The notes under the pieces: generated by a model | Database searches by the model: none | Seen by the model: the letters and a program-made list of their open reading frames with translations, nothing else | Told to the model about the DNA's origin: nothing | NCBI GenBank assembly: GCA_051362555.1 | Contig: CM120647.1 | Span: 2,542,001-2,606,000, forward strand | DNA: 64,000 bases | Reading direction: 5' to 3' | DNA from: Lingula anatina | Lineage: Eukaryota; Animalia; Brachiopoda | Position numbers and translations under genes: made by a program | Part shown: piece after piece, positions 7,601-56,400 of the stretch | Numbering within the stretch: position 1 is the stretch's first letter | Layout of the letters: every line of letters begins with the position of its first letter

Positions 7601-10600
7601 TGTACCTCTTTAGTATGAAGGAATTGTTTCTTAACTTGAATTCCCGACTTTTGTTTAGTTTGTTTTCATTCATTGCAATATCGCAAGAATAATTTGTTTG
7701 TGCTAAAAGCTGATCACAGTGATTTAATCTGAAAGTAATGCTTACACTTAGCAATGTAGGTAAGTGGAGATAATTTCCGGTACAGCCGTATTCCATTCGT
7801 ATTTCAATGGATACGAACGCGTGGCAATTTTTAGCAGACTGAATTTCAAGCCTTACGAACAAAATGATTATCTTCCAAAAATAATTAATTTTAATCGTTC
7901 GTATAGATTGGAGAATTACCGTACCGTTCTTATATATTATATTATTTTGTATATATATTTATACTTTCACTCATCTTTTAAAGGTGGTTTTTAGTAAATA
8001 ATTAATAATAATTATAACACATTTGACACCCCCCCCAATAAAAAAATTAATAAATAAATAAAAATATCAGTATTATAAAATAGAACATGGACAAAACATA
8101 GCAAAGGTATTTTCATTACCTGTTTTGCAACTCTCGGGATCATTAGGAAATTCCAGGAATTCTCTGGCATATTTTGGATTACCAGGTGGTTTCCAGGTTG
8201 GTTTGAAGCGTACATGAGGTAGAGCTCTACAATAAGAAACGTAGCTATCTATTCTGGTGGAATTTCAACATTACAATTCACTGTACACCTGCTCCACAGC
8301 AACACTGCCATGTGGTGGCACAGTACTGTATACACATATCCATATACACATACAGACCACTACATTTCCAGAAATAATCTATATTCAATCAATAAGTTCA
8401 AACAGCTCATTATGTCCAACAATCATGAACTAAATCACAGCAAAATAAAATATGATTTACATTATAAAATTGTAGTTAAGAGCTTGTATTTTATTCTACT
8501 CGAAACAGCTTTTTAACTGGTTTCAGCACTAAATGACAAAAACACTGCGGTAAGATAAAATCAATACTCGAGTTATGAATCATCATAAATAAAAGTTACT
8601 TGTTCCAGTCTGGTAGATTCTTCCTGTACATAGTGTCTATGGAGAGCACCTGTTGCCGGCCATCAGTGTCACGGTAGATTTCTTTTGCCTTGAAGATAAA
8701 TACATTCTCATTACACTGTCAGGACTACAGGAAACAGAACATGTTAATAAAAGTGAAAAATTCACAAATACCAATAATATACCAGTTCAAATTCAAATTC
8801 TTCTGTAAAGAGAAGCCTTTTAAAATGATGAACATTTCCATGCCTGACAAAAATTTAAAAGTATTTTGGGGTTACCACACTACCCATTATTATATCTCTA
8901 CCAATGCAAAATCTCCAGATATTTTGAAAAGTTTACCTTTTTCAGTGTGTGTGTCACAATACAGTCCATATCAGAGGACATGTGCCAGGACATGACACGT
9001 GCCACCTCATGGTCACGGATCTGGGCCAAGTGGGCTATCTGGAACACAACCAACAACCTTAGCATCCAGACCAGGCAGAAGCTGTGTGGAAGATTTAAGC
9101 TATGTCACATTGTGTATGTCTGGATCTACATCAGCCTAATTTTTGTGTATGTGGGGACGTGTTTTTACTTAGTTTGACTTATCAAAGATACTCTTTACAG
9201 GATTTACCTGCCAAAATAATTTTTCCTGCTGGACAAAAAAACAATTTTCTCCTAGTCATGAATCCTTGCTTGATTTGTTCCCGCATACTTAAAAAGGAAC
9301 TATTGATCAGGTACTTTAATTTGAAGGGTTTTATAGTTTTTAAGGCCTGAAGAAGTTATTAAGGCCTGAAATGGCAAAGTAGCTTTGCAGTGCAGGATAT
9401 GTAGACAGAGAAAAAAAGACAGTGTAATATTTAAATGCATAACAATGTACCTTTGAGTTTGAGGTTAATATATATTTTGTCATCCACCTGCTTTTGTACA
9501 CTGTCATGCATATGAATATGTTTGTACAAGAATAAGAGAACTGATCACAGTTGATAGTGTACATGTGCAAAGCTAGAGAGTAGATATCCACAGTCACTTA
9601 CCCTGCCTAACACCTCTGATCACAGTTGATAAGGTACATGTGCAAAGCTAGAGAGTAGATATCCACAGTCACTTACCCTGCCTAACACCTCTGATCACAG
9701 TTGATAAGGTACATGTGCAAAGCTAGAGAGTATATATCCACAGTCACTTGCCCTGCCTAACACCTCTGATCACAGTTGATAAGGTACATGTGCAAAGCTA
9801 GAGAGTAGATATCCACAGTCACTTACCCTGCCTAACACCTCTGATCACAGTTGATAAGGTACATGTGCAAAGCTAGAGAGTAGATATCCACAGTCACTTA
9901 CCCTGCCTAACACCTCAGATCACAGTTGATAGTGTACATGTGCAAAGCTAGAGAGTAGATATCCACAGTCACTTACCCTGCCTAACACCTCTGATCACAG
10001 TTGATAGTGTACATGTGCAAAGCTAGAGAGTAGATATCCACAGTCACTTACCCTGCCTAACACCTCTGATCACAGTTGATAAGGTACATGTGCAAAGCTA
10101 GAGAGTAGATATCCACAGTCACTTACCCTGCCTAACACCTCTGATCACAGTTGATAAGGTACATGTGCAAAGCTAGAGAGTAGATATCCACAGTCACTTA
10201 CCCTGCCTAACACCTCAGATCACAGTTGATAGTGTACATGTGCAAAGCTAGAGAGTAGATATCCACAGTCACTTACCCTGCCTAACACCTCTGATCACAG
10301 TTGATAAGGTACATGTGCAAAGCTAGAGAGTAGATATCCACAGTCACTTACCCTGCCTAACACCTCTGATCACAGTTGATAAGGTACATGTGGAAAGCTA
10401 GAGAGTATATATCAACAGTCACTTACCCTGCCTAACACCTCTGGGTGTCTGGGAGCTGGTTGGAGACTACAAACTCTCCTTGAAGTATTCAGCAACAGAT
10501 CACGGTGTCTCATCCTTTGCTGAACCAAGGAATCCACACTTTCCACCTGGTGTATTGAAATTAAAGCCATATGACACTTTAATGTATATCTTTACTAACT

Positions 10601-53400: not shown

Positions 53401-56400
53401 ACACACACACACACACACACACACACACTTTCCCTGATCCAAGTTTTGTTGGCTATGTCTTGACATAAGGAAGGCTTTAATATAGTGTAAGTGACAAACA
53501 GCTTACACTTTGTGCCATATTATAGTATATAAGTTAAACAGCTTACACTCTGTGCCATATTATAGTATATAAGTTAAACAGCTTACACTCTGTGCCATAT
53601 TATAGTATATAAGTTAAACAGCTTACACTCTGTGCCATATTTAAATCCCAGAAAGGCTTGGCTCGCACACTGAAAGGTTCCACTGACTTATTGAGGCGTC
53701 CAAGTTTCATCTTTTCATACCGAGGCTGCACAATTTCCTTGTTGATACAAAGCAACCTTCTGTCAAAGTCTGCCCCTCCAACATTCACATCCTGAAACAG
53801 AGATTTCCAGGAAATAATGCTTTTGTTGTATAATGGTATAGTTCATTGTTAGTCAGCAAAGAATCATAAAGCAATAAACAAAATGATAAATAAAACCATT
53901 TCTCAAATCTGTTGAATTCATGGTTTATGAAAGTATGTTAACCAATAGTCACTTTTTAGACTTACTATGAACTCTCACTTATCTATCCACTATCATGAAA
54001 TGTGAACTTCTCAAAATAATTTTCAAATATAGAAAAAAATACAACACACTTACAATTTTTAATATATAAACATATAGACAGTCAATGAAAACGCATCATT
54101 TATTTATCAAATAATATTTAAAGTTCCTTTGGCACATTAACAAAATAACATTTTTCATGTGAAAAATGACCCATTATTCAGTCACACAAGGTGAAATAAA
54201 GGTCAGAAAAGATCATTAAAATGCAAGGTCACATGATTAAATCTCTTTGGTTCTGCCCAGTCTCCAGCATCCCCAGGGCCAGCAGTCGCTCTTCCAGTGT
54301 CAGACGTGGCATCACTGAACTTTTTTGTCATGTGTCATACTGTATTTGGTGACTACCTTAAATAGGCTTAATTAATCACCATATTGAACCGGATTAATTC
54401 ACACCAATCACAAGACAGGAAAAACACATGATTTTGTAACAGCTGATCACAAAATCACTGAAGCAGAAATTTTAAACATCGAGTGGACAGCCCTCTCTCT
54501 TATGACCAAGTGCATTTGTACTCGTTTATATAGTTGGAATTGATTCTCTGTAAATAAGTACAAGAAAGTTTTTTTGATGCATTTTCATTGACTGTCAGTA
54601 TATCTATATGGACTTACCTCAAACCTTATTATATCATAGATGAGATATCTAGGGACAGATTTGCCATCCACTTCATCCATGATCATTTCCTAAATATAGA
54701 GAGGATATTTGTATGTTAGGGTCATGATGGTGCCTCATGGAAAAGTCTGTGTTATTCCACAGACAGAAATCTCATATGAAAAAAAAAGTATAAAAATGAA
54801 AATTAAACACTACAATGTACTTTACACTTGCTATTACTACACAAAAACTAGCAAGAAAAATTTGTAAAATTATCTGTGTTAATTTTCATGGAAATAACGG
54901 ATCAGCTTTCTCTTTCATGGAACATCTTAAAAATGCCAAATCGAATGTTAGAAAAAATGTAAAGAAAAAAAAAAAGAACTTCATAACTTCATTATATATT
55001 CCAATATGAATGGTTTTCCAACTCAAGTTGTGTTTTACTCTGTAGTAAAACAAAGCTGTCAAATGTACAGACAAAATGCAGAAAATAATGATACACAAAT
55101 TAGATATTTTGTCAATTTTGATGCAAAAATACATAATGCTTAGCAACAAAGTCAACACCAAATTTTACTTATGCACATAGCACCAGACTTCACACCCATG
55201 AGAGTTGAAATTCATACAATGAAAATCTCACATAAAAAATGCATAAATTCAAGGAAGAAAAACAACCCAATCAAGGTGGTTTTCCAATTTGAGCTGTATG
55301 TCAATCCTAAGAATCATTCTTTGAAGTTTAAAAATAATAAGTAGCACAGTTTTCCTTTTATAACATTTGTGGTGGCAATGCACAAAATAGGTTTCTTTTG
55401 TCAATTCTGATGCAACATTACACAGTGATTTACAGCATAATCACCACAATTTGAAAATCATCAGTGACATGGTTTTCATAATAATTAACACAGTTTTCTC
55501 ATGTTCACAAGTTAAATCTAATTCCTGGTGTTGCTAATGGCTGACAGATAGTGATAGCAATATGTTCAACCTGTCCATAAAAACATCATTCACACTGGCA
55601 AACACACATGTATAACAATTAGCTACCCCGTCAACTAGAGTCTTGGATATGTGGGCTTCTAGATTTTTCCTTTTCGGGAAGCAAAGATTTGTAACATGGA
55701 AAACACAGTTGTCTCTGTCCACCATAAATATCCTATTTTTACCATCTATAAGCATCAAGTACCTAAAATGATAAAAAAATATACATTAAATGTACGAATG
55801 TAATACTGACTATCAAAATTTTTAGCAAAAGGGGTTGACTTATTAAAATTTAAACTACTGTGTCTTGGTTTGTCTACACTATCACTTTAAGGCCATGTTA
55901 CACCAGGCTCGAGTCCACTTGGAGCACCAATGTCAGCAGACTCTCTCACATGGTGAACATAAGAAAAGCATGCAATATTCAATATTCATATAATATAATA
56001 TTTGTTATTATATGAATATGATGCTGACTATCAAATATTGTCAAAACTGTGAAGGACTTGAGAGAGGTTCTTCTAGAATTCACAAGGACATTGTAACAGG
56101 GTATTTAACAACTGTACAACACCTCTTCTTAAGTCAGCTGGTTTTCTTCACCAATCATGGAGTTCATTCTCTGACAATTACAAGATACATAGTTTCTAGA
56201 AGGAATGTATATGAAGTGGGAAAAGATTTCTTTCTTATAACAACTAGCAATTCACCTGACCTTGACATTTTACTTTTATCTGACATGGCCTTGACATTTG
56301 ACCTTTACCTTACCTGACTCCATCTGCTTTCCAGCTGACTTTAAAAGGTTTCTGAGTGAGAAGAGAGAGGTTTTTAAGATCCATGGACACAGGCTGGGCG

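Follow-up and report, generated by a model that had tools for sequence, protein, structure and literature searches.

Minisatellite arrays at exon edges of SMCHD1 and RNGTT in a 64-kb window of the Lingula anatina genome

Genes and junction-spanning arrays of the window

We analyzed a 64,000-nucleotide stretch of the genome of the brachiopod Lingula anatina (assembly GCA_051362555.1, contig CM120647.1, positions 2,542,001 to 2,606,000; hereafter the window) in which two neighboring genes, SMCHD1 and RNGTT (mRNA-capping enzyme), carry tandem repeat arrays built from an exon end and its adjoining splice site. Nine arrays span an exon-intron junction, eight at donors and one at an acceptor, with eight of the nine in SMCHD1 and one in RNGTT (Table 1). 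Their units are 19-75 bp long, are arranged head to tail in 3-52 copies and are unrelated from one array to the next. In the eight junction arrays detected by Tandem Repeats Finder (TRF) the exon contributes 3-41 nt of the unit. The additional copies are all intronic and leave the coding exons intact; between them they provide 93 spare donors, 92 with GT and one with GC, and 6 spare acceptors, every one with AG. The arrays are 'mirage' minisatellites, the name given to boundary-spanning tandem repeats in amphioxus: each has a minisatellite unit, spans a boundary, and repeats the splice signal in its intronic copies.

SMCHD1 was identified from the match of its exon 10 to the SMCHD1 entry 6mw7_A in the PDB (E 8.8e-24) and from a tblastn search with a fish SMCHD1 (P0006), which agrees with our exon model. 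RNGTT was modeled by walking the Lingula anatina mRNA-capping enzyme P0128 along the window, the exon at 50921-51121 being 98% identical to that protein. RNA reads from three Lingula anatina runs confirm 11 of the 12 SMCHD1 introns that lie wholly inside a tested 6.9 kb. Of the arrayed junctions, those of exons 24 and 25 are confirmed by RNA and the other seven are placed by open reading frame and protein matches. A candidate SMCHD1 exon at 40907-40973 was dropped on account of its broken reading frame, as were initial versions of exons 41-47. The exon 20 donor at 32523 (minus strand) is GC in our model, which would make the intron that follows a GC-AG intron, as judged from the open frame.

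A preliminary description of this DNA had listed at least nine unrelated arrays made of an exon end and its splice site, naming nine. TRF recovers eight of these with the same places, periods and copy numbers, and the ninth, at exon 25, was recovered with a mismatch-tolerant scan. The exon models built here reproduce the exon numbers of that description, with the junction inside each unit, and the frames are open end to end with all copies in introns, so that its statement that the extra copies spare the coding sequence stands. Likewise, the arrays do lengthen introns and stack splice sites as it proposed, since the eight TRF junction arrays total 4,860 bases and their spare GT and AG signals are intact.

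The longest array, at the exon 18 donor, contains ten unit variants in an ordered pattern. A block of 12 units in this pattern returns 16 units further on, whereas 300 shuffles give a maximum of 6, and we take this recurrence as the mark of multi-unit exchange. The same array is in frame with SMCHD1 and stays open for 212 codons of 14-residue repeats. At exons 7, 18 and 40 the arrays end in terminal overlaps of 2-8 nt (array length modulo unit 8, 2 and 3, respectively).

Table 1. Genes and repeat arrays of the window, with positions counted from its first nucleotide
Feature	Position	Strand	Description
SMCHD1 gene	4620..44650	-	47 coding exons, one open spliced frame, 2,061 amino acids
RNGTT (mRNA-capping enzyme) gene	50475..62451	-	17 coding exons, 607 amino acids, open frame
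Leucine-rich-repeat (LRR) gene	15138-20963	+	five exons, 858 amino acids, matches P0008
Four-exon gene	45108-47382	+	about 465 amino acids, modeled by eye
SMCHD1 exon 40 donor array	9541..10443	-	75 bp x12 (17 nt exon + 58 nt intron); 11 spare donors, one GC
SMCHD1 exon 36 donor array	23157..23906	-	55 bp x13.6 (41 nt exon + 14 nt intron)
SMCHD1 exon 28 donor array	27823..27974	-	19-20 bp x8 (TRF 19 x7.9; 3 nt exon); sense strand G-rich
SMCHD1 exon 25 donor duplication	29630..29784	-	about 59-67 bp, 3 degenerate donor copies; mismatch-tolerant scan, below TRF threshold
SMCHD1 exon 24 acceptor array	30273..30534	-	41 bp x6.3 (17 nt exon + 24 nt intron); 6 spare AG upstream
SMCHD1 exon 22 donor array	31457..31804	-	58 bp x6.1 (40 nt exon + 18 nt intron)
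SMCHD1 exon 18 donor array	33724..35909	-	42 bp x52 (15 nt exon + 27 nt intron)
SMCHD1 exon 7 donor array	41159..41271	-	35 bp x3.2 (31 nt exon + 4 nt intron); 8-nt terminal overlap
RNGTT exon 13 donor array	53496..53641	-	40 bp x3.7 (15 nt exon + 25 nt intron)
Near-junction array	38580..39079	-	41 bp x12.2; starts 16 nt past SMCHD1 exon 11 donor; no junction inside
Near-junction array	41889..42404	-	64 bp x8.1, identical units; ends 14 nt before SMCHD1 exon 6 acceptor
Near-junction array	31048..31180	-	39 bp x3.4; 38 nt before SMCHD1 exon 23 acceptor
Near-junction array	19774..19948	+	67 bp x2.6; 12 nt after exon 3 donor of nested LRR gene
Near-junction array	19520..19611	+	33 bp x2.8; 24 nt before exon 3 acceptor of nested LRR gene

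Position and copy number of the arrays

We compared the 22 TRF loci of period at least 10 in the window with the 139 junctions of the four gene models (92 in SMCHD1 and 47 in the others). Under the placement null every array was reduced to one unit and placed at random, wholly exonic places being excluded. In this one window, chosen for the pattern, 8 of the 22 arrays span a junction where whole-window placement leads us to expect 2.57 (p 0.0024), and 13 either span a junction or lie within 40 nt of one, against 5.2 expected (p 0.0003). The excess of spanning arrays is also found when arrays are placed within their own interval (8 of 20 versus 3.06 expected, p 0.004), under a compact-part placement (p 0.008) and under GC-matched placement (8 of 22 versus 3.73 expected, p 0.014). 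A more sensitive set drawn from the mismatch-tolerant scan (23 arrays kept of 27 rows, the remaining 4 rows being two dispersed pairs) has 9 of 23 arrays spanning a junction, against 2.93 expected (p 0.0012). The window thus contains about a threefold excess of arrays at exon edges, and the concentration at junctions noted in the preliminary description holds here also under GC-matched placement. A separate test of 20-mers centered on junctions (7 of 69 at the donor, 7-10 of 61-69 at 20-200 nt) was set aside because expanded arrays occupy its intronic control positions.

A stronger signal than the spanning count is the relation between copy number and closeness to an exon edge. Of the eight arrays with at least 5 copies, six span a junction and the other two come within 40 nt of one; the six compare with 1.1 expected for this subset, which was picked after the data were seen. 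The nine TRF loci more than 40 nt from any junction have 2.0-3.1 copies, in agreement with the earlier statement that deep-intronic and intergenic arrays reach only about 2-3. Across the 22 loci, copy number falls with distance from the junction (rho -0.75). Five arrays lie 12-38 nt from a junction without containing one; four of them had already been singled out, and their distances of 12, 38, 16 and 14 nt fall within the 12-40 nt given for them, while the fifth, at 19520, adds a distance of 24 nt. Two of the five are large (x12 and x8) and approach to 14-16 nt of the junction without including it, indicating that the bias depends on position and can arise without the splice signal.

Two weaker duplications were seen beside these arrays. 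A 37-nt piece from within SMCHD1 exon 38 recurs once, almost unchanged, in intron 37 at a distance of 112 bp, where it lies 66 nt ahead of the acceptor (11368-11404 and 11480-11516); this lone copy is possibly a templated insertion and the seed of a future array. In RNGTT, a degenerate 29-nt duplication at 56254-56310, which we counted as non-spanning, ends 3 nt from a donor and is possibly a decayed mirage.

The pattern might also arise with no genomic bias toward junctions at all, if a repeat-prone locus with small introns had been picked by eye and GC-rich units simply expand more. The SMCHD1 introns are indeed short (median 372 bp), so that a 40-75 bp unit meets a junction fairly often by chance, with a per-intron chance of spanning of up to 0.40. 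The window was selected, and the arrays near junctions are GC-richer (median 0.42 versus 0.20). Matching for GC lifts the expectation from 2.6 to 3.7 and so removes part of the excess, but the remainder stays, and the excess holds under all four placement nulls. Moreover, copy number still follows distance once GC is removed (-0.65) and hardly follows GC once distance is removed (0.15). We therefore regard this explanation as quite unlikely.

Splicing and possible allelic variation at the arrays

Two of the arrays are nearly uniform (eight identical 64-bp units; thirteen 55-bp units with one variant), as might be produced by an assembler, and an independent run, X2, appears to hold far fewer copies at exon 36. 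Assembly artefact is nevertheless scarcely credible as the source of the arrays or of their copy numbers, since ordered variant blocks and degenerate copies are not assembler inventions and contigs of X2 carry the repeat-unit sequence at exons 24, 28 and 36. The differences of X2 from the window suggest that alleles may vary in length. At exon 36 the unit contig of X2 has a depth of 41.2 and unique DNA one of 48, whereas 11-13 fold would be predicted from the window allele; these are, however, short-read contigs whose depth is no copy number. At exon 28 an X2 contig, again from short reads that can collapse repeats, lacks 116 bp of the array. Of the 91 31-mers of this 116-bp skip, 18 are absent from the window allele, and the contig is therefore no collapse of that allele, though it might be a collapse of X2's own. 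Clustered intronic indels also distinguish X2 from the window. One other individual thus probably carries shorter alleles at exons 36 and 28.

The RNA reads, 166 over the tested 6.9 kb with at least three reads required per joint, provide splice data for two of the nine arrays. At exon 24, nine reads from two runs splice exon 23 onto the real acceptor at 30289, and at exon 25 the donor closest to the exon is taken by four reads from one run. The joints listed for these two exons, 13 reads in all, include none at a spare site, though the depth is so low that minor use of spare sites is possible. The exon 28 intron is the only one of the 12 tested without a joint among those listed, and the exon 36 donor has no RNA loose end among those listed. 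The preliminary description had pictured the arrays as decoy sites that the spliceosome must resolve; the stacking of sites is real, and in the few listed reads at exons 24 and 25 it causes no visible difficulty, as these fall at the exon-nearest site.

Junction-spanning variable number tandem repeats (VNTRs) in human genes provide a precedent for such a choice of site (PMC1557585, in the part that treats F7 IVS7 with its 37-bp unit, CBS intron 13, 6-16 intron 2, LMNB2 with 100 bp and PDGF with 81 bp). As in Lingula, the first unit spans the exon end and the donor is repeated, and the human arrays are polymorphic. Splicing of F7 takes its most upstream donor and no other, even though stronger copies follow downstream (PMC1557585), and by analogy spare donors would be tolerated in Lingula as well. 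In the same source, extra donors are used at 6-16 and CBS, unlike the Lingula arrays at exons 24 and 25 as far as the few listed joints go. Furthermore, the human VNTRs are scattered single loci in that account, whereas 8 of the 92 SMCHD1 junctions carry an array in Lingula.

It is conceivable that the spare sites are used, either to tune the level of SMCHD1 through frame-shifted products or to add in-frame repeats to the protein. The near-complete retention of GT among spare donors would fit such a role, as would the open, 42-nt-unit array at exon 18, where 21 of 51 spare donors outscore the real donor (7.4 versus 5.4 on a matrix built from the window's own donors) through a stronger-scoring +6 base. 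The nearest spare acceptor of exon 24 would likewise add 45 nt in frame. However, in copies this young (85-100% matches) the GT is expected to persist even in the absence of selection. Splicing at the second donor would throw the product out of frame at six of the eight donor arrays and at a seventh, exon 40, would run into a stop after 4 codons, and all nine listed exon 24 reads fall at the real acceptor. We thus consider regulated or coding use of the spare sites very improbable, and the arrays are likely to be neutral, harmless, length-variable repeats that are passed over through splicing at the exon-nearest site.

Origin of the arrays and related systems

Taken together, the data are probably best explained by mirage minisatellites that are born locally, grow at exon edges and are passed over because splicing takes the exon-nearest site. 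Slippage or microhomology repair would create units at any place in non-coding DNA as ordinary local duplications, most of which would remain at 2-3 copies; the short terminal overlaps at three arrays and the many 2-3 copy duplications elsewhere are our grounds for this step. Duplications that happen to lie at an exon edge would then expand by slippage and unequal exchange, on the one hand because the exon offers GC-rich sequence and a conserved anchor for the pairing of divergent alleles, and on the other because deletions that erase the array from the exon side would not be tolerated, so that the exon would act as a shelter. Growth at exon edges is what we observe in the window, and its cause is our inference. 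Exon-anchored exchange and shelter are favored by the GC content of exons (48%, against 33% in array-free introns), the 1.6% heterozygosity given for Lingula in a passage of PMC4595640, the intronic indels, and the two large arrays that abut exons without containing a junction. Finally, donors would come to outnumber acceptors because transcription reaches the real donor before its copies and splicing settles on it, while at an acceptor array the spare sites come first and would likely be purged more often. Such a rule, as in F7, would explain the ratio of 8 donors to 1 acceptor among the spanning arrays (p 0.039), which is itself a weak result.

Several points weigh against this account. The p-values come from a single window chosen for the pattern and are inflated, and eight of the nine junction arrays lie in one gene (8 of 92 SMCHD1 junctions versus 1 of 47 others, p 0.27); our numbers therefore describe the window and are no genome-wide test. 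The donor bias weakens to 7:1 in the TRF set (p 0.07), and a comparison of spanning with near arrays gives p 0.095. The exon 36 array stops, at its distal end, in exon-derived sequence, and one simple duplication does not account for such an end. Lastly, the RNA reads are few and bear on only two arrays, and the extra donors used at human 6-16 and CBS show that the exon-nearest site need not always prevail.

In an alternative account the bias lies in birthplace rather than growth, with breaks or R-loops coupled to transcription or splicing arising just past donors and their repair copying the exon end into the intron. The first 30 nt past donors have a G-skew of 0.27 and a GC of 0.38, both above deeper intron, and seven of the eight donor arrays have a sense-strand G-skew of at least 0.20, against 0.11 in introns. 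An array that terminates in exon-derived sequence, as at exon 36, and the lone exon 38 copy, which resembles a templated insertion, would also be expected from such repair. Against it, the excess is carried by arrays of at least 5 copies and most 2-3 copy duplications lie far away, which speaks for growth rather than birth, and acceptors also have arrays, one spanning and three near. We judge this mechanism unlikely. A broader version of local birth with growth at exon edges is a tentative possibility: exon edges may be amplification hot spots at which repair or recombination anchored in the exon end drives any duplication within about 40 nt to high copy number, with or without a splice signal, while selection keeps spare donors and loses spare acceptors. 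If so, intron growth would have a general mechanism of which mirages are the visible half, and natural competition between splice sites would be found throughout the genome.

Tandem genomic duplication across AG|GT is a proposed route to intron gain (Rogers 1989; Zhuo et al. 2007, as cited in a passage of PMC3087553) and was linked to the arrays in the preliminary description. Both begin with a local tandem duplication holding splice signals, but the route as summarized there duplicates exon-internal sequence to create a new intron, whereas in Lingula existing junctions are copied and existing introns grow. We looked for introns whose start copies the start of the next exon and whose end copies the end of the previous one, and found this signature in none of 69 introns (best matches 8 of 20 and 11 of 20), although old gains could have decayed. 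The link to intron gain is thus not borne out, and we reject intron birth by tandem duplication at this locus.

The closest known systems are the amphioxus mirages, first reported in Adh3 (Canestro et al. 2002, via PMC3087553 and PMC3902484) and found also in the globins BflGb6 and BflGb9, troponin C and PGBD5 (PMC3087553, PMC3902484). The passages of these two papers that treat mirages describe normal splicing, length variation, somatic instability for Adh3 and a proposed role in intron gain, and in PMC3087553 their origin is called unclear. As in Lingula, the unit spans a boundary at 5' or 3' ends and many copies keep GT or AG; unit sizes overlap with ours (10-72 bp in Adh3), and copy number differs between amphioxus haplotypes. 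The pattern accordingly belongs to a described class (PMC3087553, PMC3902484, PMC1557585) and is not novel as such. The Lingula case differs in its brachiopod host, in the clustering of nine arrays of up to 52 copies in two neighboring genes, and in that enrichment was counted against a null, a count that does not appear in the mirage passages of PMC3087553 and PMC3902484. In a literature search that left most subscription papers outside, we found no report of such arrays in Lingula and no genome-wide enrichment test, and a term search of the main texts of two Lingula genome papers (PMC4595640 and PMC13121700, the latter on a long-read assembly of Lingula anatina) did not find the word 'minisatellite'. 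New here are the brachiopod example and the roughly threefold junction excess, in one hand-picked window. If the excess and the link between copy number and distance hold genome-wide, Lingula would offer a direct test of why exon edges breed minisatellites, and its natural cases of identical competing splice sites would test outside mammals whether the first donor wins. Such arrays can also mislead gene prediction and read mapping.

Two further genes were modeled in the window. The LRR gene lies within the 11.4-kb intron 37 of SMCHD1, in antisense orientation; its 661-residue frame at 15138-17120 is 100% identical to the Lingula anatina protein P0008, and its relatives, at 33-52% identity, include Owenia and Lineus proteins. 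The four-exon gene stands head to head with SMCHD1, the two start codons being about 500 bp apart, and encodes a protein with a low-complexity N-terminus and a basic, charged C-terminal stretch. Within SMCHD1 intron 31, the segment at about 26050-26130 has a summed contig depth of 3027 with RNA loose ends on both sides and is a high-copy dispersed element. A sequence of ~180 nt that contains a (TC)n(AC)n tract was seen by eye in two RNGTT introns (about 51690-51880 and 53265-53450); it may be a short mobile element.

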